Part shown: positions 1,480 through 19,155 of the stretch, in pieces
Position numbering within the stretch: the stretch's first letter is position 1
How the letters are laid out: every line of letters begins with the position of its first letter
Virus record (IMG/VR): IMGVR_UViG_2684623171_000007
From: a virus
Lineage: Duplodnaviria > Heunggongvirae > Uroviricota > Caudoviricetes
DNA: 20,162 nt
Reading direction: 5' to 3' (one strand)
Notes under the pieces: model-generated
The model's database searches: none
What the model saw: only the letters and a program-made list of their open reading frames with translations
Told to the model about the DNA's origin: nothing
Program-made: the position numbers and the translations under genes

Positions 1480-2370
1480 TCAGGCTGCCAGATCATCGTT
1501 TCCGATGGAAGCATAATAAGCTTTTTCTGCTTCTGCCGGAGGAGTATGGCCCAGCCTTCCCAGCAATCGTCGATTGTTATACCAGTCCACCCACGTTAGT
1601 GTGGCCAGTTCCACTTCTGCACGGTTTTTCCAGCTCTTACGGTGTATTACCTCCGCTTTGTAAAGACCATTGATGCTCTCAGCCATCGCGTTGTCATACG
1701 AGTCGCCTGTACTCCCTGTTGATGCCAGTAATCCGGCTTCTTTTAGTCGCTCCGTATAGGCCAGTGACACATACTGAGAGCCTTTATCGCTGTGATGGAT
1801 GGTGCCAGACGGACGACGGGCCCACAACGCCTGCTCCAGCGCATCCAGCACGAATGTCGTTTCCATAGACGATGAGACCCGCCACCCCACGATGTATCCG
1901 GCAAACACATCAATGATAAACGCCACATAGACGAAGCCCTGCCATGTGCTGACGTAAGTAAAATCAGCCACCCACAGCTGGTCAGGTCGTTCTGCCACGA
2001 ACTGACGGTTTACGCGGTCGCCTGCGGCAACGGCTTTCCGGCTGATGGTCGTACGGACCTTTTTACCCCGGAGAACACCGGCAAGTCCCATAACCGCCAT
2101 GAGACGTGCCACTGTACATCTGGCCACCCTGATTCCTTCCCGTAACAACTGACGCCAGACTTTACGCACACCGTACACCTGATGATTTTCATCGTATACG
2201 CGCTGTATCTCTCTCTTCAGCCAGTCGTCGTGCTGCGCACGGGCACTGCGTTTATCCGGATGATGTCGCTGTTGCTGACAATGGTAATACGTTGACGGGG
2301 CAATATGCAGTTCGCTGCATACCGGTCCGACCCCGTACTGCTCACGCAGCTTATCCAGCAGTGGCATCAT
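1480..2370 (-). CDS. IS629-like transposase OrfB (catalytic part; normally expressed as an OrfAB fusion by -1 frameshifting in IS3-family elements)
   Basis: ORF track 296 aa in the -1 frame relative to OrfA, overlapping OrfA by 4 nt at an A6 run; contains the DDE-family motifs. Confidence 0.85.
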
Positions 2371-2693
2371 TTTTTCCAGAGGCGGTCGAACTCCGCCTTC
2401 GCAAAATAAGCGGAAGCCTGGCGAAGGATATCGTTACTGCGGCGCAGTTCACGATTTTCACGTTCCAGCTCTTTCAGACGCTGACGTTCAGCGCTGGTGA
2501 GCCCACCATCACCGCCCCCGGTATCCCGCTCATGCTGGCGAACCCAGACACGCAGAGTCTCCGGCGTACAGCCAATCTTTGGGGCAATGGAACAAATTGC
2601 CGCCCACTGTGAGTCATATTCATCCTGACTTTCCAGAACCATACGAATCGCCCGCTGACGGACTTCGGGGGAAAAACGAGTATTTTTAGTCAT
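2367..2693 (-). CDS. IS629-like transposase OrfA (HTH DNA-binding part)
   Basis: ORF track 108 aa: [98 protein letters not shown]. Stop overlaps the OrfB start in an A-rich run (GGAAAAAATGATG). Confidence 0.9.
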
Positions 2694-7439: not shown

Positions 7440-8045
7440 GTGTGGTCTGAAATAATAATTAAGGAGATTATCGTGCTATCTTACTTAATGGCAATTCACT
7501 TTGTTTTATTTGGAAACTCTACTAATTTAAAAAACTTCTGGAAACATGAAGTAATTCGGCGGAAACGTATGGATATCTGGAGGCTTTTAAGAGAGAAAAA
7601 ACAGCGTAACCGGAATTTCCTTTTCTGGTGGCGGTTGGCTAACGAAATGTATATTAATGGTAATAAATTACATAAGAAAGCAGCCAAAAAGTTAAACAGT
7701 AAAATAATTAACAAGTTTGGTTGTGAAATAGGATTGGGCGCAAATATTGGAAAAGGGTTGACAATTCCCCATCATGCTGGAATTGTTGTTCATTTTGCTG
7801 TTGATGCGGGTGAAAATCTGGTATTACGACAGAATACTACCATTGGACAGATAGATGGTGATATGCCTAGTTCAAGAGTAAAAATTGGTAGTAACGTTGA
7901 TATCGGAGCTAATTGTTGCATCATTGGATTATCACGTAAAATTGGGGATAATGTAAAAATAGGTGCAATGTCTTTTATAAATAAAGATATACCATCAAAC
8001 TGCACATATATAACTAAAAAGAGTGGTGTTGTATTGTATAAATAG
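7440..8045 (+). CDS. hexapeptide-repeat (left-handed beta-helix) acyltransferase, serine/sugar O-acetyltransferase-like; low-GC cargo gene
   Basis: ORF track 201 aa. Likely true start is GTG at ~7473 after AAGGAG (MLSYLMAIHF...). Tandem hexapeptide [LIV]-G-x-x-x-x pattern (GCEIGLGANIGKGLTIPHHAGIVVHFAVDAGENLVLRQNTTIGQIDG...VKIGSNVDIGANCCIIG..KIGDNVKIGAMSFI) typical of the CysE/WcaB/LacA acetyltransferase family. The segment 7320-8090 is visibly AT-rich compared with the flanking tail genes. Confidence 0.7.
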   Translation: MWSEIIIKEIIVLSYLMAIHFVLFGNSTNLKNFWKHEVIRRKRMDIWRLLREKKQRNRNFLFWWRLANEMYINGNKLHKKAAKKLNSKIINKFGCEIGLGANIGKGLTIPHHAGIVVHFAVDAGENLVLRQNTTIGQIDGDMPSSRVKIGSNVDIGANCCIIGLSRKIGDNVKIGAMSFINKDIPSNCTYITKKSGVVLYK

Positions 8046-8090: not shown

Positions 8091-8621
8091 ATTGTGGGGC
8101 GACTGGCCACTCAACATCCGCTGCTACTGTTGTATCAACACGATTCAACAATACCCGATATGTCTTCCATGCAGCCAGTAACGATGCCTCTTCCTCCGTC
8201 GCAATATCCAAATCTACGGCATCCTGAAGTGGCGCAATATGCTCACTGGCTACCTGCATCAGGCTGTTTTTTGTTTCTTCTGCCTCCCGTACCCGAAACA
8301 GTTTTTCTGCTTCTGCATCTTTCGCCCAGGATGTGCCGTTCCACTTCTGACACTCTCCATCCGGCGACAACCAGGTAACATTTTCCGGTAACGGACCGAG
8401 TTCAGAAATAAATAACGCGTCGCCGGAAGCCACGTCATAAACCGTTTTACCCCGATGATCTTCAACGAGATGCCACGATGCCTCATTACTGTTGAAAACA
8501 GCCACGAAGCCAGCCGGAATATCTGGCGGTGCAATATCGGTACTGTTTGCTGGCAGACCTGTATGAGGCGGAATGTATGCGTCACCTTCACCAATAAATT
8601 CATTAGTTCCGGCCAGCAGAT
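8089..8621 (-). pseudogene. tfa: tail fibre assembly protein (Tfa, P2 gpG-like), 5'-truncated by the IS629-like insertion at 8622
   Basis: ORF track 8089..8505 (GTG-initiated) ends ..[30 protein letters not shown], the characteristic Tfa C-terminus. The same frame stays open upstream to the IS boundary (..[45 protein letters not shown]..), matching the internal part of Tfa proteins as I recall them; about 15-20 N-terminal codons and the start codon are missing. Confidence 0.85.
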
Positions 8622-8675: not shown

Positions 8676-9002
8676 ATGACTAAAAATACACGTTTTTCCC
8701 CCGAGGTCCGTCAACGGGCAGTCCGTATGGTTCTGGAAAGTCAGGGCGAATATGACTCACAATGGGCGGCAATTCGTTCCATTGCCCCAAAGATTGGCTG
8801 TACACCAGAGACTCTGCGTGTGTGGGTTCGTCAGCATGAGCGGGATACCGGGGGCGGTGATGGTGGACTCACCACCGCTGAACGTCAGCGTCTGAAAGAG
8901 CTGGAACGTGAAAATCGTGAACTGCGCCGCAGTAACGATATCCTTCGCCAGGCTTCCGCTTATTTTGCGAAGGCGGAGTTCGACCGCCTCTGGAAAAAAT
9001 AA
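8676..9002 (+). CDS. IS629-like transposase OrfA (copy 2)
   Basis: ORF track 108 aa; differs from copy 1 OrfA at 4 residues (V16, G24, R34, T67 versus I, D, C, S). Confidence 0.85.
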
Positions 9003-9678
9003 TGCCGCTGCTGGATAAGCTGCGTGAGCAGTACGGGGTCGGACCGGTATGCAGTGAACTGCATATTGCCCCGTCAACGGATTACCACTGTCAGCAACAG
9101 CGACATCATCCGGATAAACGCAGTGCCCGTGCGCAGCGCGATGACTGGCTGAAGAGAGAGATACAGCGCGTATACGATGAAAATCATCAGGTGTACGGTG
9201 TGCGTAAAGTCTGGCGCCAGTTGTTACGCGAAGGTATCAGGGTGGCCAGATGTACAGTGGCGCGCCTCATGGCGGTTATGGGACTTGCCGGTGTTCTCCG
9301 GGGTAAAAAGGTCCGTACTACCGTCAGCCGGAAAGCCGTTTCCGCAGGCGACCGCGTAAACCGTCAGTTCGTGGCAGAACGTCCTGACCAGCTGTGGGTG
9401 GCTGATTTTACTTACGTCAGCACATGGCAGGGCTTCGTCTATGTGGCGTTCATCATTGATGTGTTTTCCGGATGTATCGTGGGGTGGCGAGTCTCATCGT
9501 CTATGGAAACGACATTCGTGCTGGATGCACTGGAGCAGGCGTTGTGGGCCCGTCGGCCGTCCGGCACAGTCCATCACAGTGATAAAGGTTCTCAGTATGT
9601 ATCACTGGCCTATACGGAGCGACTAAAAGAAGCAAAACTGCTGGCATCAACAGGGAGTACAGGTGACTCGTATGACAA
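9002..9678 (+). pseudogene. IS629-like transposase OrfB, C-terminally truncated (copy 2)
   Basis: ORF track 9002..9691 (229 aa); the last residues (..DSYDNVFY*) are read from non-IS sequence, so the conserved C-terminal ~70 aa of OrfB are missing. Confidence 0.8.
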
Positions 9679-9710
9679 TGTATTTTATTAGTTCACATAC
9701 AATTATCAGA

Positions 9711-10025
9711 TTATTCTGGGAATAAGGTCTGAATATTCTTTTTTATTTTATAAAAATTGCATTCAACTCCGCTAGGCTGATTAGCCTGGTATGTTTCCTT
9801 GATGCTAACGGTATTGAAGGGGAGGTTGTCCTCTGGCCATTCGGCCATCCAGTAGGCAAATGCTGGGTTGCGCTTTATGAGTGCTAGCCCAGCCAGAAAG
9901 GCCGCGCGTTGCGCGCGGCTGCGTTCGGAGGCTGGCAGGCTATCGAGGTAATTGCACGCCTCCTGTTCACTCTTGACGGCGGCGGGCTTCAGATAGAAAC
10001 TTATCCGTCTGGTTGGTGTCGTCAT
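9711..10025 (-). CDS. parR: ParR/StbB-like centromere-binding partition protein (ribbon-helix-helix)
   Basis: ORF track 104 aa; starts 5 bp after the parM-like stop. N-terminal half (RRISFYLKP...LDSLPASERSRAQRAAFLAGLAL) resembles ParR of plasmid R1 as I recall it (..TIAFKLNP..LDSIPQGERSRLNRAALTAGLAL..). The C-terminal third is divergent and encoded by AT-rich DNA next to the IS junction. Confidence 0.6.
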   Translation of the reverse strand: MTTPTRRISFYLKPAAVKSEQEACNYLDSLPASERSRAQRAAFLAGLALIKRNPAFAYWMAEWPEDNLPFNTVSIKETYQANQPSGVECNFYKIKKNIQTLFPE

Positions 10026-10029
10026 TGGT

Positions 10030-10989
10030 TTACTCCTTGTTCATTGCGTACAACCCATTAACCAGAGCAAACTGTGGCACCCCGTCCGCGATGAAAGTCG
10101 CATTAACTCCGCAGGCTTCGCGGATAGCGGTTGCCACAATCTCCGCCCCGCCACCGACAACCATCACCCGCCCGTAACCCGAAAAAACCGCCAGCGCGCG
10201 GATCACGCGTTGTTTCAGTGTTTCTTCCTTTTCACGAATAACCGCCATCAGGCTGGCGTAATGCGCGTCATTGTGGATGTGCTGGCGCAGCCAGGCTTCA
10301 TCATGGCGATGTTCGATAATGGTATTGGCGATGTGGTGACTGGTGCGCATACCGTTAGTGGCCATCACCGACAGTACGGCATCGGCCATCAGAGAAACGC
10401 CTACGTGTGGATCGCAAAACACCTGGCTGATACCTGCCAGTTGCCCCTGAACCTTTGCCACATCCAGCGTGGTTCCGCCCAAATCCACAATCAGCAGGGA
10501 TTCAAACGGACTCATGTCAGCCAGTGCCTTAAAGCCAGCAGGAATGGATTCAGGCATAACCCGTACGTTACGGATAGTGAATGCTTCGCCGTTCTGGTAC
10601 TCCACCGGGCGCATGACGTTCGCTTTTTTGCGGTTGATGTTGGCCATGTCCGGCTGTGCGTTTGTATCGAAATACTCGCTCAGTGGCAGGGTGACAACCA
10701 CATCCACTTCCTGTGGTGTGATGCCTGATTTGACCAGCGCGTGATGAATGGCAATTACATTCACATCGCTGTACTGGTATTGCGTGTCGGTCGTCTGGAC
10801 AAAGCGATCGCTGACCGGATCAAAACCATAGCGCACGCCATCAAGCATGTAGTTCGCGGGCTGCGTGCCACCGAATGGCGCAGACCATTCCGACTTGAAG
10901 CTGTTCGGGCTGATGGCGTTGCGGCGTTCGCCGTTCTCAGTCCATGCCAGCTTGATGTTGGTGGAGCCGTCGTCGATACAAATTTTCAT
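10030..10989 (-). CDS. parM: ParM/StbA-like actin-type partition ATPase
   Basis: ORF track 319 aa with AAGGA Shine-Dalgarno. Family-defining blocks IDDGSTNIKL, ISPNSF, YQYSDVNVIAIHHAL, MPESIPAG, LIVDLGGTTLD, GVSL, FSGY..VMVVGGGAE and LVNGLY align with R1 ParM/StbA as I recall it. Confidence 0.85.
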   Translation of the reverse strand: MKICIDDGSTNIKLAWTENGERRNAISPNSFKSEWSAPFGGTQPANYMLDGVRYGFDPVSDRFVQTTDTQYQYSDVNVIAIHHALVKSGITPQEVDVVVTLPLSEYFDTNAQPDMANINRKKANVMRPVEYQNGEAFTIRNVRVMPESIPAGFKALADMSPFESLLIVDLGGTTLDVAKVQGQLAGISQVFCDPHVGVSLMADAVLSVMATNGMRTSHHIANTIIEHRHDEAWLRQHIHNDAHYASLMAVIREKEETLKQRVIRALAVFSGYGRVMVVGGGAEIVATAIREACGVNATFIADGVPQFALVNGLYAMNKE

Positions 10990-11023
10990 GTCGCTTTTCC
11001 TTATGTTGATTAATTAATCGGTT

Positions 11024-11132
11024 ACAGGATTTTTAAATCCCGCTTTTGCCTGTTTTGTGCGCGCTTCATATATCGCGGCGCGTTTTTTGCTCATTTACGG
11101 GATTTGTGAGTCCCGTTTCTGTCTGTTTTTTG
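11024..11132. repeat. two ~36-bp direct repeats, each with internal dyad symmetry, upstream of parM (candidate parC-like centromere/operator or tandem hairpins)
   Basis: Copy 1 ~11024-11059 ACAGGATTTTTAAATCCCGCTTTTGCCTGTTTTGTG; copy 2 ~11097-11132 ACGGGATTTGTGAGTCCCGTTTCTGTCTGTTTTTTG (about 27 of 36 positions identical). Cores GGATTT..AAATCC and ACGGGA..TCCCGT are inverted repeats followed by T-rich tracts. Copy 2 lies inside the last ~20 codons of gene A. Confidence 0.4.
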
Positions 11133-13888
11133 TTTCCACTGGTCAGGCCACCCCGCAGCAGGTCTGCTTTGCGGCTGGCGCGTTCAGTGGTTTCACTGAT
11201 TCTCTGTGCGTGCTCTGCGTCGCGGATGGCGCGCAGCATGTCAGAAAGCACGGTAACGGGTGTTTTCATGGTGTTCTGGTCCTGCTGAAGTGTGGATGCC
11301 AGGCGTGCGGCGGCTTCAGGGTCTGATGCCCCCAGCTGTGCCAGATAGCTGGCGACCGGGTTATGGCGGATCTCCGTGCTGCTTACGCCATGATTACGGC
11401 TCAGGCGCTGCCAGAGCTGCGTGATTCGGCTGTCCGGGCGGGTATCCGGTTTGCGTACAATTTCAAATCCCTGCGGTGCAATGATGCTGCCGTCAACGTA
11501 CAGACTGCCGCCCCGTAACAGGTGCTGCATCTGTTGTTCACCGATATGCAGGCCGAGAGATTCAGCAGACTCCCGCCATTCTTTAGCGAGTAATTCGTGG
11601 TTATCAGGCAAAGGCCGCTGCTGTTTGCGGCTCTGTGTCCAGCTCTGCATTTCATCACTGCTGTTTTTTGCCTGTTTGTCACGAAGCGAACGCATCAGCG
11701 CCCGGCGTTCGTGCCGTTTCAGTGAGCGCATCCATTCGTTCACGTCAACGCCGTCAGGAAGCTGCGGCCACGGTGCTGGCCGTTCTTCCGGCTGTTCTGT
11801 CCCGTTGTTGTCCGTTTCCTGTACACGGGGACAGTTATTGCCACGAGTCCAAGGGGCGGCAGGGCCGCCCTGAAGGTCAAAACCATTTTCGCGGGCGCTG
11901 TCTTCTACTCCCGGTTTACGTCTTACCAGCTTCCAGTTATCCGGGTGCGTGCACACACGGGAGGATTCCCCGATGAGTGGTGACCAGATCCCGTAAATCT
12001 GTACGCTCTGTTCGCCGTAATCGTTCAGCTCATCTGCGAGGTCGTAGGCGGTGCGAATCAGGTAGTCCTTGCGTGGAACAAGTACGCCTCCCTGTTTCTC
12101 AATGTAGGTGGTAAAACATCCGGCATCAGCGGCAGCAAGAACCGCATCCATTGCGTCATCCTTCAGCCGTTGCGGGCCTTCCGGGTTGCGTGCCATCTGG
12201 CTGGCAAGGCGACGCAGTTCACGCCACACCTGACGGGAGGGGATGCCAAAGAACTGGAACTGGCGGACCCGGTGAAGGCGCGCCCAGCCAATGGCGCGTT
12301 CCACGCTCTCGGTCATTGATTTTCCGGTTTCGTGGTCAACGCGTGGTTTGCCTGTTTTCGGGTCGATGCCATCCACGGCGCGGCTGTCCAGGTTTTTTCC
12401 GATGTAGGTGGCGATGTAGCTGGTTGGCGTGCCTTTTGAGCCGTCGACATACTCCGCCTTAAAGCGCGGAGTAATATCATCGCCCAGCTCGTGACGATCT
12501 TCCTGAATGGCAATATCGCGGGTGTGGGACACAATGGTGTCGATTTCTTCCGGATGAGCAAAGACCATCATATGCCAGTGCACGGTGCCGTCATGGTGAG
12601 GCTCCACCGTGCGGATGCCATACCAGCGCAGGCCGTCGCGGTTCAGTTTCTTGCGGACCGCCGCAAAAAACGTGTTAACCAGGTAATCGCTGGAGTCGCG
12701 CATGGTGGCCCCGTTCCATTTGGGATTCGGATGACCGTTCTCTGTTGTAGCGTGGTATTTTGACGGGCAGGTGACAGTCAGAAACACCGCTTTGTCGCCA
12801 CGGGCTTCGGCCAGAAGTTCCAGCCCCTTCATGGTGGCCATCATTTCTGCCTTACGGTGAACCGGGTTACTTACTCCCGCGTAATACACTGTCTCGAGAT
12901 CAATCGTGAACCCGTCTTCGTTTTCCAGCATGAAACTTTTCAGGAAATCGCGTGTTTTCTCGCGCTGTGCGCGAAACTCGCTTAACGCGTCCTGGCTCAG
13001 ATAGGGCGATGTTTTTCTGGAAACCAGACAGGCGGCGCGGAGTTGTTCTTCTCTCCACTCGCAACGTAACAGCCACAGTTTGCGTTTCCACCATTCCGCA
13101 CAGGTCAGGCGAAGGATTGCGCCCGGCAGCAGCTCCGTGTCCGGTTCGTTCCTCCGGTCTTTGTCTGTTGTCAGTGCGTCATAATGTGGAGGCATGGCGT
13201 GCAGGTGTAACGCCATGCGGGCCAGCATCTGATACGCCTTCAGCGTTACATCCATGGTCAGTTCGCCATCGGTCGCGCCAAAGCCATCGCAGAGTTTTTC
13301 GAAGGTGCTGCTGAACATCGCCGCCGTCATGGTGGCCAGCGTCTGTATCTGGTGTTTGTTGAGCTGCGGCAGGTAAAGCAAATCGTCCAGGCGTTCGCGT
13401 CCGGCAAGGGAGCGATAACCCTGTGTCAGCCAGCGGTGATCGGTGCGCTCCAGACGTTCGAATATTTTGCGCAGGTTTCCGCGCGCGTAGCGTTCAGCCT
13501 GCCAGCTCTTTTTGCCTTTCTGACGATCGGCTTCCTGTTTTTTGCGCAGGAAGGAGAGGTGGCGAATAAGCGGATCGCGCAGATAGGACGGCAGCAGGCG
13601 CAGCGAGGCCATGGCTTCATCCACCGCACCGCGTGCCTGTTTTCTGGCGTCTCCTGCCAGTGTGATGGTTTTGTCCTGTTTTTCCTGTGCGTCCAGGCTT
13701 TTATTAATCAGGTTGCCCAGCGGCGTTGCGGAGAACGCCGCATCAGCCATTTCCTGGCGGCGCTCGTTCTCTACCCGGTAGGCATCCAGCCAGGAGGAAA
13801 GCGCGGATTCAGGAGCGGGGATCCCCGTTCCTTCACGCCCCACTGCGTGGCGCGGTTGTTGCCAGTCCCTGATGTACTCTGCCGTCAT
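11066..13888 (-). CDS. A: replication initiation endonuclease (P2 gpA-like, HUH rolling-circle initiator)
   Basis: ORF track 940 aa. Contains an HUH-type motif (DGTVHWHMMVF) and a downstream tyrosine motif (TPTSYIATYIGKNLDS), the arrangement established for P2 A-family initiators. Sits at the distal end of the early operon as in P2. It is longer than P2 A as I recall it (~760 aa), so the real start or C-terminal tail may differ. Confidence 0.8.
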   Translation of the reverse strand: MTAEYIRDWQQPRHAVGREGTGIPAPESALSSWLDAYRVENERRQEMADAAFSATPLGNLINKSLDAQEKQDKTITLAGDARKQARGAVDEAMASLRLLPSYLRDPLIRHLSFLRKKQEADRQKGKKSWQAERYARGNLRKIFERLERTDHRWLTQGYRSLAGRERLDDLLYLPQLNKHQIQTLATMTAAMFSSTFEKLCDGFGATDGELTMDVTLKAYQMLARMALHLHAMPPHYDALTTDKDRRNEPDTELLPGAILRLTCAEWWKRKLWLLRCEWREEQLRAACLVSRKTSPYLSQDALSEFRAQREKTRDFLKSFMLENEDGFTIDLETVYYAGVSNPVHRKAEMMATMKGLELLAEARGDKAVFLTVTCPSKYHATTENGHPNPKWNGATMRDSSDYLVNTFFAAVRKKLNRDGLRWYGIRTVEPHHDGTVHWHMMVFAHPEEIDTIVSHTRDIAIQEDRHELGDDITPRFKAEYVDGSKGTPTSYIATYIGKNLDSRAVDGIDPKTGKPRVDHETGKSMTESVERAIGWARLHRVRQFQFFGIPSRQVWRELRRLASQMARNPEGPQRLKDDAMDAVLAAADAGCFTTYIEKQGGVLVPRKDYLIRTAYDLADELNDYGEQSVQIYGIWSPLIGESSRVCTHPDNWKLVRRKPGVEDSARENGFDLQGGPAAPWTRGNNCPRVQETDNNGTEQPEERPAPWPQLPDGVDVNEWMRSLKRHERRALMRSLRDKQAKNSSDEMQSWTQSRKQQRPLPDNHELLAKEWRESAESLGLHIGEQQMQHLLRGGSLYVDGSIIAPQGFEIVRKPDTRPDSRITQLWQRLSRNHGVSSTEIRHNPVASYLAQLGASDPEAAARLASTLQQDQNTMKTPVTVLSDMLRAIRDAEHAQRISETTERASRKADLLRGGLTSGNKKQTETGLTNPVNEQKTRRDI

Positions 13889-14332: not shown

Positions 14333-14563
14333 TTAATGGAGTTTGTTTTGCTGCTGGATGAGCTGTTGAAACTCGTGCAGATCATCCGCCAGATAGCTGA
14401 AAACAGAGGCGGAATAAATGTTTGATAGTGCGTGGCTGCGCTCATGCAGCATATTGATGTGCATGATTTGCGCGACGCGTGATGCGCGGGAAAGTCTGCG
14501 GTTGATTTCAGTCTGGATGTGACGACGCTCCGCGATAGCGCGGTGCTGTTTGCGGTCTGCCAT
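14333..14563 (-). CDS. hypothetical small basic protein (76 aa)
   Basis: ORF track; AAGAGG Shine-Dalgarno about 8 nt upstream of the ATG. Preferred over the overlapping 205-aa ORF 14257..14874, which has low-complexity composition. Confidence 0.4.
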   Translation of the reverse strand: MADRKQHRAIAERRHIQTEINRRLSRASRVAQIMHINMLHERSHALSNIYSASVFSYLADDLHEFQQLIQQQNKLH

Positions 14564-17707: not shown

Positions 17708-18112
17708 ATGAAAAATGATATTGGTCGGCGGTTGCGTGAGGAAAGGGAAAGATTGGGACTTAGTCAAGTTGCCATGAGCGACATTGGTGGAGTCAAAAAG
17801 CTAACTCAGCTTAGATATGAGAAAGGAGATAGCTTTCCTGATGCTGCGTATTTGGCAGCGCTGTCTCGTTTTGGCCTTGATGTTCAGTATGTTGTGTTGG
17901 GAATTCACTCACCTGAAACTTATAACGATGATGAGCAGGAATTGATTACTCGCTTTCGAGCAGCTTCGTTAGATGTGAAAAACGCGGTGATTGGGGCTTT
18001 AAAAGGTGCGATCAGTGAAAAGGAAACTCAGCCATCAGGACGTGAGTTAAATATTTCTGGTGGTAATAACCGTATCGCTGGTCGTGACTATAACGAAACT
18101 AAGGGTAGGTGA
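17708..18112 (+). CDS. XRE-family HTH repressor (P2 C / 186 CI-like immunity repressor candidate)
   Basis: ORF track 134 aa. N-terminal Cro/C1-type HTH (IGRRLREERERLGLSQVAMSDIGGVKKLTQLRYEKGDSFPDAAYLAALSRFGLDV); divergent from the early operon and on the integrase strand, as in P2. Confidence 0.7.
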   Translation: MKNDIGRRLREERERLGLSQVAMSDIGGVKKLTQLRYEKGDSFPDAAYLAALSRFGLDVQYVVLGIHSPETYNDDEQELITRFRAASLDVKNAVIGALKGAISEKETQPSGRELNISGGNNRIAGRDYNETKGR

Positions 18113-18127
18113 TAGTAGGGAGGTGAC

Positions 18128-18778
18128 ATGGCCGTCAACTCAAACGGTTCAAACAATCGCGTTGCTGGGCGTGATTTTCACGAAAAGAATATTCAGATAG
18201 AGCGATATGATGGTTCTCATACCGTCAATATCGCAATCCCTTCGAATAATGATGATGACGATCGCCCTTTGCTTAAGGCTCAGCGTAAGGAGCTAAATAG
18301 CTTGGTTGCTGCTATTGCAGAAGCTAGCAATACTGAAGCGTTTATTATTTGGCAAAAAGTACATGCGGAGATTGGTGTAGCTGGTATTGATGATATGACA
18401 GTAAATCAATATAAAACAGCGGAGAGTTTTCTGCATGCAATGCTTGAGCGATGTAAAGATCATGATGCCTGTAAGGCTCTTGTAAGTTTATTACTACGTA
18501 ACAGTGAAGACTGTGGACTTCGACAAAAACTTCTGCGGTATTGCCATATCAATTTCGGTACAGGACGTTTAAACGATCTTACTCGTTCTCAGTTACAGTC
18601 TGCATTGTCGTGGTTAGAGCAACAATCGGCATCAAGCCACATAGAGAGTTCGACCTTACCAGAAGTCCGACTTCGTGCTTCAGAATTAATCCGACTTTAT
18701 CCAAAAGAAATAATATTCTTTATCTGCGTAGGGGTTTTGGTAGGCGGTGTCATTTCTAGGGCGTTTTTTAATTTGTAA
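18128..18778 (+). CDS. hypothetical protein with a C-terminal transmembrane anchor (cargo between repressor and integrase)
   Basis: ORF track 216 aa; GGGAGG Shine-Dalgarno 6 nt upstream. C-terminal hydrophobic segment IIFFICVGVLVGGVISRAFF. N-terminus repeats the motif found at the repressor C-terminus (GSNNRVAGRDFHE versus GGNNRIAGRDYNE). Confidence 0.55.
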   Translation: MAVNSNGSNNRVAGRDFHEKNIQIERYDGSHTVNIAIPSNNDDDDRPLLKAQRKELNSLVAAIAEASNTEAFIIWQKVHAEIGVAGIDDMTVNQYKTAESFLHAMLERCKDHDACKALVSLLLRNSEDCGLRQKLLRYCHINFGTGRLNDLTRSQLQSALSWLEQQSASSHIESSTLPEVRLRASELIRLYPKEIIFFICVGVLVGGVISRAFFNL

Positions 18779-18807
18779 TCTTACTTGAGCTAAATTGAGG
18801 TAATGAT

Positions 18808-19155
18808 ATGAAAGTAAAAAAGGTTCAACTATTAGTTACTTTTTTATCTATGTTTTCTTTTTCCGCCGTCGCAATGCCTTTTAAAACTATTGAACGTGAG
18901 AGTTTCAATGGGGTATGGCCATTTAATACTGATGAGGTTCAATTACAGTGTCTTGATGGTAATCCTTATGTGATGAATTTTGACGATAATAAGTTATATG
19001 CACTTACAGGTTTGGCTCGAATAAAAGGTAAAACATTTGGTGCGTTACCGTTAGATAACAATAATCCATTTTGGCTAGATAATGATGCCGCCCCAGGGTT
19101 AAAAAAGAGTCTGGGGGATGTCACTAAGGCTGCATTTGATTTATGTGATAAGTAA
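18808..19155 (+). CDS. hypothetical secreted/periplasmic protein with predicted signal peptide
   Basis: ORF track 115 aa; N-terminus MKVKKVQLLVTFLSMFSFSAVA looks like a Sec signal peptide. Mature part has two cysteines and is encoded by AT-rich DNA. Confidence 0.55.
   Translation: MKVKKVQLLVTFLSMFSFSAVAMPFKTIERESFNGVWPFNTDEVQLQCLDGNPYVMNFDDNKLYALTGLARIKGKTFGALPLDNNNPFWLDNDAAPGLKKSLGDVTKAAFDLCDK

Follow-up and report, generated by a model that had tools for sequence, protein, structure and literature searches.

Why should a phage that integrates into the chromosome of its host carry the segregation machinery of a plasmid? The question is posed by a stretch of 20,162 nucleotides (nt) from IMG/VR virus record IMGVR_UViG_2684623171_000007, referred to here as the window, in which a parM-parR gene pair and two upstream repeats follow the replication gene A of a P2-like prophage. 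An earlier first-pass annotation, made from the letters of the window without database searches, had read this segment as a complete type II partition locus, and the present analysis agrees with it: ParM, ParR and a repeat-bearing upstream region are all present by sequence. As to the function of the module, we lean, if only by a little, to the view that it partitions the transient phage circle replicated by the gene A product (gpA), so that both daughter cells keep the element until re-integration or lysis.

The product of parM (10030-10989, minus strand), a protein of 319 amino acids, was identified as an actin-fold partition ATPase by three comparisons. Both Pfam domains of the family were found in it (StbA_N, 1.8e-82; ParM C-terminal domain, 3.5e-69), it aligned end to end (residues 2-316) with the crystal-structure sequences of ParM from plasmid R1 at an E value of 7e-93, and it was assigned to PHROG 691, 'partition protein', at 1.1e-89. 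The nucleotide-binding motifs are kept, namely phosphate-1 IDDGSTNIKL, MPESIPAG, phosphate-2 DLGGTTLD (equivalent to D170 of R1 ParM) and GGGAE. The StbA/ParM signature recognized in the first-pass annotation agrees with these searches, which place the protein inside the ParM/StbA family. The open reading frame (ORF) was intact, with 319 codons, in 83 of 83 related loci, and its product was 98-100% identical across 80 IMG/VR loci. The gene is under strong purifying selection: among 69 alleles the nonsynonymous divergence (dN) was 0.0046 and the synonymous divergence (dS) 0.078, for a dN/dS ratio of 0.059.

The parR gene (9711-10025, minus strand) starts with an ATG placed 5 nt past the last base of the parM stop codon, the spacing given in the first-pass annotation, and encodes a protein of 104 amino acids which is a centromere-binding adaptor by family (Pfam Plasmid_stab_B, 7.7e-29; PHROG 2515, 'partition protein', 1e-54). 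Among 47 homologues, the segment R6-P14 (RRISFYLKP) and the pair F102-P103 were invariant, and N97-I98 was present in at least 90%. Conserved helices extend up to about residue 61 and are followed by a hypervariable segment (residues ~62-95) and by a conserved tail, NIxxxFPE; the Plesiomonas, Hafnia, Serratia and Enterobacter homologues have the tail motif NAxxLFP in common. An AlphaFold2 (AF2) monomer model built on the 47-sequence alignment, with a predicted local distance difference test score (pLDDT) of 65, showed an extended N-terminus, helices at residues 20-29, 32-52, 54-61 and 91-101, and disorder from 67 to 87. At this low confidence, the N-terminus and helices 20-29 and 32-52 are compatible with a ribbon-helix-helix (RHH) fold. 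The modelled layout is the one expected of a ParR, that is, an N-terminal domain for DNA binding and a C-terminal peptide for ParM binding, joined by a flexible linker, and we take the basic/hydrophobic tail of the phage protein to resemble the ParM-binding tail of R1 ParR. Between phage variants, DNA homology breaks within parR (window 9711-9900, the C-terminal half of the protein), while the neighbouring parM is 98-100% conserved; when the Escherichia proteins were clustered at 90% identity, ParM fell into few clusters and ParR into dozens. A recombination boundary of the hotspot that lies between gpA and gpQ seems to be located within parR, where only the last ~10 codons re-converge.

The two dyad-containing repeats reported upstream of parM were found again and could be refined to two 38-nt copies on the minus strand, 79% identical and 73 nt apart, each of them a putative ParR site. 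The promoter-proximal copy (11022-11059) lies in the 76-nt gap that separates the gene A stop from the parM start. The distal copy (11095-11132) lies within the last ~22 codons of gene A, and the interval first given for the cassette (9711-11135) therefore overlaps gene A by 70 nt. The family consensus is ACAAAACAGGCAAAAACGGGATTTCAGAATCCCGTAAAC for the proximal repeat and AAAAAACAGACAGAAACGGGATTCACAAATCCCGTAAAT for the distal one, and the repeat consensus over 67 distinct related sequences is AAAACAGrCArAAACGGGATT-N4-AATCCCGTAAA. Each repeat contains a dyad of the type GGGATT-N4-AATCCC, whose arms were nearly invariant and whose 4-nt spacer was variable among the 67 distinct related upstream sequences. 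With at most one mismatch allowed, the dyad motif was found in the window only in the two repeats, and in complete P88-type genomes it occupied only these two places. The Plesiomonas lineage shows another sequence in the same two-copy layout (two 26-nt direct copies, 72 nt apart), and the Serratia and Enterobacter upstream regions have inverted arms of 14-20 nt. We regard the repeat pair as a putative centromere (parC) composed of repeated ParR-binding sites. A 'terminator' predicted on the plus strand at 11097-11116 was discarded, as it is the distal palindrome itself.

Gene A (11066-13888, minus strand) encodes a P2-type rolling-circle replication endonuclease of 940 amino acids with a Phage_GPA domain at residues 179-503 (Pfam, 2.4e-131). 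The cassette is directly downstream of it and co-directional with it, as had been annotated, parM beginning 76 nt after the gene A stop on the same strand. Scans of positions 9500-11400 for promoters, terminators and Rfam families revealed no coding-strand promoter and no RNA family, and in the minus-strand interval that separates gene A from parM neither a terminator nor a promoter was predicted. Because this 76-nt gap is free of predicted terminators and promoters, parMR is probably transcribed together with gene A from the early operon by read-through, and would hence be expressed when the genome is a free circle. The C-terminal region of gpA (codons ~504-940, window 11066-12380) is long and unmatched in Pfam, and the distal repeat lies at its end; in relatives the protein is 785-912 amino acids long, versus 940 here.

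A cassette of this kind might also have been part of an adjacent plasmid or integrative element, a doubt that had been raised with the first-pass annotation itself. Virion-derived genomes carry it at the same position (P88, phiSM, vB_EcoM-569R5, PhiR44_2 and Chuche), so it is the phage's own and not a piece of some plasmid or island next to it. Intact relatives are arranged as int - C - cox - early genes - A - parM - parR - small cargo genes - portal - terminase - head - lysis - tail. ParM of this type was present in 14 phage records, all P88-like, and a 48% identical protein was found in the 91-kb phage D6. The cassette occurred in 1304 of 5426 complete E. coli genomes (24%). Records with at least 80% of the cassette numbered 1275 and those with at least 80% of P88-type gene A 1322, a ratio of about 96%, while the 1.5 kb after parR presented 23 unrelated arrangements among 67 loci. 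Given this linkage to gene A and the turnover beyond parR, the cassette is not interchangeable cargo, and the earlier placement of it where P2 carries its variable tin/old genes has to be amended: it is the left, nearly constant shoulder of the gpA-gpQ hotspot, near-core in the P88/Xuanwuvirus lineage, and what varies is the cargo downstream. In rare P88-type prophages without the cassette, an ead/Ea22-like gene was found in its place; strain CUVET19-1704 is an example of a natural variant without it.

The nearest ParMs outside E. coli point to the same association with P2-like phages. Each of them is part of a P2-like prophage arranged A - parM - parR - cargo - portal, where a Phage_GPA gene immediately precedes parM and a Plasmid_stab_B gene follows it: those of Plesiomonas and Hafnia (both 62% identical), two of Serratia (58% and 57%) and that of Enterobacter (54%). 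A 93% identical ParM (P0003) has the same genomic context. In a neighbour-joining tree of 107 ParM homologues, built without bootstrap support, the ParMs of P2-like prophages fell within one 16-member clade. The examined ParMs outside this clade, about 50% identical, were encoded on a plasmid, an integrated plasmid, an integrative and conjugative element (ICE) and an IncL/M plasmid. We considered whether the cassette had recently been captured from a known plasmid and rejected this, since the best plasmid matches, of the IncL/M pKPC type, reached only about 67% identity in DNA and 52% in protein and their iterons were unrelated.

Compared with the ParMRC system of plasmids R1 and R100 (parA/stb), the phage module shows the same order of repeat region, parM and parR, a ParM that aligns over its full length and a ParR of the same Plasmid_stab_B family. 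The R1 centromere consists of ten 11-bp iterons flanking a promoter. The phage, in contrast, has two 38-nt units, each with a 20-bp palindrome, at a spacing of 73 nt and with one of them inside a coding region, and no sigma-70-like promoter was detected among them. Its ParM is about 50% identical to that of R1 and belongs to a separate, phage-linked clade. The carriers differ as well, the one being a theta-replicating low-copy plasmid and the other an integrating phage that replicates by rolling circle.

Should the module act in inheritance, the element might be maintained as a plasmid, as the first-pass annotation suggested when it proposed a phage-plasmid-like lifestyle and as Rousset et al. 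had speculated (PMC9122126); ParMRC would then keep P2-like phages as low-copy plasmid prophages for many generations. Several records are of the kind that this explanation predicts. NZ_CP148288.1 (pZ1323PEC0009-2) is a complete P88-type genome deposited as a circular 34,461-bp 'plasmid' and joined exactly at the attachment (att) site, and the contig of a Plesiomonas relative has the size of a phage (32 kb) and ends 141 nt from int. In a search of complete genomes for the attP junction, circular records were split at the origin, and chromosomes break the junction exactly at the start of the pZ1323PEC0009-2 record. The ParM homologue of D6, which we take to be a P1-like phage-plasmid, is annotated 'StbA type plasmid stability protein', and the partition modules of such phages (the StbA-type ParM of D6, ParAB of P1 and N15) resemble the present one in being phage-encoded. 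Phage-plasmids of the D6, P1 and N15 type, however, are obligate extrachromosomal prophages with plasmid replicons and without chromosomal integration, whereas P88-type phages integrate by means of a tyrosine integrase. Because 1442 of the 1444 cassette copies in the complete E. coli genomes are chromosomal, the window and all complete relatives contain the integrase (with att-site integration kept in the genomes examined), and the replication functions consist solely of the P2-type gpA rolling-circle endonuclease with no plasmid-type replicon, the data do not support a stable plasmid lifestyle as the normal state. Circular assemblies would be expected from ordinary spontaneous induction, and ordinary excision would account for both the 34.5-kb circular record and the Plesiomonas contig. 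We therefore judge long-term maintenance as a plasmid to be improbable.

A further stability gene was noticed at the prophage end that lies outside the window. It encodes a toxin of the Hok/Gef family (Pfam, 3.7e-7) and is located at 34781-35068 in P88 and at 1291-1431 in NZ_CP148288.1; beside the hok gene of P88-type phages, the model of the sok antitoxin RNA was matched over its full length at 47.9 bits (E 2.7e-9), short of the gathering score of 59. By these matches P88-type phages appear to hold both R1-type stability functions, parMRC and a hok/sok-like locus, and the killing locus can also be counted in favour of a phage-plasmid lifestyle. A broader scheme can be drawn from here, which we put forward as speculative and rather doubtful. 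P88-type phages would be facultative episomes whose circle is partitioned by ParMRC and policed by the hok/sok-like killer in a heritable carrier state of several generations, followed by re-integration or lysis; defective remnants unable to lyse the cell, such as prophage Sp13 of E. coli O157 Sakai, would behave as part-time plasmids; and ParMRC would be an ancient, lineage-defining system, diversified in step with P2-like phages across Enterobacterales and Plesiomonas, rather than a gene captured from a plasmid.

Partition of the transient circle, the reading to which we lean, assigns the module a narrower task. ParR dimers would bind the two palindrome-bearing repeats upstream of parM, with RRISFYLKP as the presumed ribbon of the RHH fold, and the conserved C-terminal helix of ParR (KNIxxxFPE) would catch the ends of ParM filaments, whose ATP-dependent polymerisation would drive the phage DNA copies apart. 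The substrate would be the covalently closed circular genome produced by gpA rolling-circle replication, present after infection and before integration, and again after spontaneous or SOS-triggered excision. With parMR expressed through the early operon together with gene A, the proteins would be made only when the genome is episomal, and no stable plasmid-prophage state would be involved. Besides the identity of the parts, the selection on parM, the linkage to gene A in P2-like phages and the conserved repeats, this proposal is favoured by an episomal phase of the element (to which the P88-type genome assembled as a circle adds), by the position of parMR behind gene A, by the hok/sok-like locus and by a precedent in srpMRC. 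The latter stabilises the SXT/R391 ICEs only in their excised state, is expressed only along with the genes for excision and transfer, and lowers the rate at which the excised form is lost (PMC4489591, Carraro et al. 2015). Like the phage module, srpMRC is an actin-type partition locus in a normally integrated element that has a rolling-circle initiator when excised and that also bears a toxin-antitoxin stabiliser. Unlike it, srpMRC is carried by an ICE and has been validated experimentally, SrpM is distant from R1 ParM and SrpR has no recognisable ParR domain, whereas the phage module is known from sequence and its proteins are clear members of the ParM and ParR families. Binding of ParR to the repeats, joint transcription with gene A and a benefit for inheritance are inferred.

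The main rival to this proposal holds that the module organises lytic replication: ParM filaments, acting through ParR, would position or spread the replicating circles and so raise the efficiency of replication and packaging, with no part in inheritance. Its model is the AlpC/AlpA/alpS system of prophage CGP3 in Corynebacterium glutamicum, which is induced early and without which phage DNA is not replicated efficiently (Donovan et al. 2015, PMC4446434). That system joins an actin-like filament former to a DNA-binding adaptor with sites upstream of its own operon, is encoded by an integrated prophage and has circular phage DNA as its substrate, and the module studied here would share these traits, early induction included. 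P2-type phages replicate into monomeric circles, which is compatible with such a role, as are the location of parMR directly behind the replication gene with no predicted terminator and the strong purifying selection seen in inducible, virion-forming phages. The likeness has limits, though. AlpC is a very divergent, merely distant actin-like protein, while the ParM studied here is about 50% identical to true plasmid-segregation ParMs; AlpA is unrelated to ParR; and the demonstrated role of AlpAC, in another host and another type of phage, is efficient replication and not inheritance. Moreover, variants devoid of parMR and all other P2-like lineages replicate without the module. We find a replication role of this kind unlikely, and it could coexist with partition of the circle.

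The first-pass annotation had also considered a part in exclusion or defence. According to this explanation ParR and ParM of the prophage would hinder incoming plasmids or phages that share the centromere, or would act against phages. The position of the cassette adjoins a documented defence hotspot (PMC9122126), and HicAB and a KAP NTPase are among the cargo found next to it in relatives. Related elements might also be incompatible with one another in partition, as all E. coli variants share the DNA-binding segment of ParR and the repeats. Yet neither ParM nor ParR gave a PADLOC match, the cassette is constant while the defence cargo turns over, and every hallmark of a partition machine is kept, including the cis-acting sites. 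The suggestion thus went unsupported, and we hold it to be the least probable of the explanations weighed here.

The state of the element in the window raises yet another possibility, that of an inert passenger. By its sequence, the window is a defective P2-like prophage of E. coli O157:H7 related to phage P88. A 4.4-kb segment enclosing the cassette is 100% identical to many E. coli O157:H7 chromosomes, and in strain TR01 the element adjoins yecA on the chromosome and is annotated with tail genes, an IS3-family transposase, a 'plasmid partitioning/stability family protein', a 'plasmid segregation protein ParM', a 'replication endonuclease', early genes and a 'phage integrase'. Pfam searches identified tail sheath, tube, tape measure and gpU on the left side of the window and a helix-turn-helix (HTH) repressor and the tyrosine integrase on the right side, and the early region is 97-98% identical to P88, to other Peduoviridae of the genus Xuanwuvirus and to Citrobacter phage phiSM. 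Sp13 has been described as the sole P2-like prophage of O157 Sakai (PMC2669165). O157 genomes contain one copy of the cassette, and for these two reasons the window element is most likely Sp13/CP-933T.

Where the intact phage has its cargo, portal, head, lysis and baseplate genes, the window has a truncated copy of insertion sequence IS629 of the IS3 family (8676-9678, plus strand; NCBIfam IS3 transposase, 3.4e-70; Pfam rve/HTH_21; ALIL pseudoknot at 8957-9073), and the region from cargo to tail fibre is gone. IS629 homology stops at 9678 and phage homology begins at 9679, so that the junction abuts the 3' flank of parR. A second, full copy (1480-2693, minus strand), which also has an ALIL frameshift pseudoknot, splits the tail sheath gene; TR01 is without this insertion, so the window derives from another O157 strain. 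IS629 as the carrier that brought the cassette was rejected, because intact phages possess the cassette without any insertion sequence. Under the passenger explanation, parMRC of this window would be kept only by recent O157:H7 descent after the loss of the head, lysis and baseplate genes. The heavy IS629 degradation agrees with this, and so does the 100% identity of the O157:H7 copies among the matches listed, which leaves no diversity from which selection within O157 could be deduced. On the other hand, int, gene A, parM and parR are all intact in the window in spite of the degradation, and in O157 Sakai the element still excises, replicates and responds to mitomycin C: Sp13 forms circles spontaneously, and the drug raised its circular DNA about 30-fold and increased the early-region transcripts (PMC2669165). 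With lysis impossible, retention of the circle would matter more to such an element, not less. A passenger status for the cassette is accordingly quite improbable in our estimate, a shade less so than defence.

Some other features of the window were recorded. The immunity region (17708-19155, plus strand) is unlike that of P88 and contains a 134-amino acid HTH repressor, with a 216-amino acid ORF and a DUF2511 ORF between repressor and int; the 216-amino acid ORF has no Pfam match, and P88 has only a C protein of 93 amino acids beside int. Within the early operon, a C4 antisense RNA (RF01695; 14620-14707, minus strand) and an isrK Hfq-binding small RNA (sRNA; RF01394; 14743-14817, minus strand), both matched at the Rfam gathering level, lie just upstream of a 76-amino acid 'derepression' gene (14333-14563). 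These RNAs could be the regulator behind the unusual mitomycin C inducibility of Sp13, which Asadulghani et al. left unexplained. Between gpU and a remnant of the tail-fibre-assembly gene there is a serine/sugar O-acetyltransferase-like gene with hexapeptide repeats (7440-8045, plus strand); its NCBIfam matches are EpsC/CysE-like and below cut-offs, and it is likely a moron, perhaps a modifier of lipopolysaccharide (LPS) or O-antigen. The tail-fibre-assembly remnant, between this gene and the truncated IS629, includes a strong Rfam match (191 bits) to the IS009 sRNA family (8126-8324, minus strand).

A number of points weigh against partition of the transient circle. The putative parC is made of two sites and not of tandem iteron arrays like those of R1 or pSK41, and autoregulation in the manner of R1, from a promoter inside parC, is unsupported because no sigma-70-like site was found there (a simple consensus scan of the minus strand, 10990-11140, which a weak promoter could escape). 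The place of ParR among RHH proteins rests on the Pfam assignment and on its single match to PDB sequences, a weak one to the N-terminus of pB171 ParR (2jd3, E 0.01), since the AF2 model has a pLDDT of only 65 and a Foldseek search with it against the PDB gave no meaningful match, leaving the fold structurally unconfirmed. The rare P88-type prophages that lack the cassette show that it is dispensable for persistence as a prophage. The phage-linked clade comes from the tree without bootstrap values, and the genome collections are biased towards clinical E. coli. Even for srpMRC the effect in SXT/R391 was modest (PMC4489591). We found no functional test of the phage module in the literature, and the papers on Sp13 and P88 do not mention it. 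The parts of the O157 proteome supplements that were examined (PMC3210124) had no entry for the partition proteins.

The cassette is a rediscovery rather than an unreported feature. Both proteins are already named in RefSeq, the gene counts as a 'fitness' ORF in the phiSM paper, and Rousset et al. (PMC9122126), who analysed the gpA-gpQ locus in E. coli, remarked on the cassette and made the same phage-plasmid speculation as the first-pass annotation; it goes undiscussed in the paper on P88 and in a survey of P2-like viruses from 2026. What is added here is its near-core status in the lineage, a phage-linked clade that spans several genera, a conserved centromere candidate and the genome data against a plasmid lifestyle.

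About a quarter of complete E. coli genomes, including those of O157:H7 and sequence type 131 (ST131), carry an actin-type segregation module in an integrating phage. Were the module to act in lytic replication, small temperate coliphages would gain their first actin-type system of this kind. If instead it secures inheritance of the excised or pre-integration circle, a step would be added to the textbook pathway of lysogeny. The lesson of srpMRC, that integrated elements invest in their episomal phase, would then extend to phages, and this could help to explain the persistence and mobilisability of degraded prophages such as Sp13.

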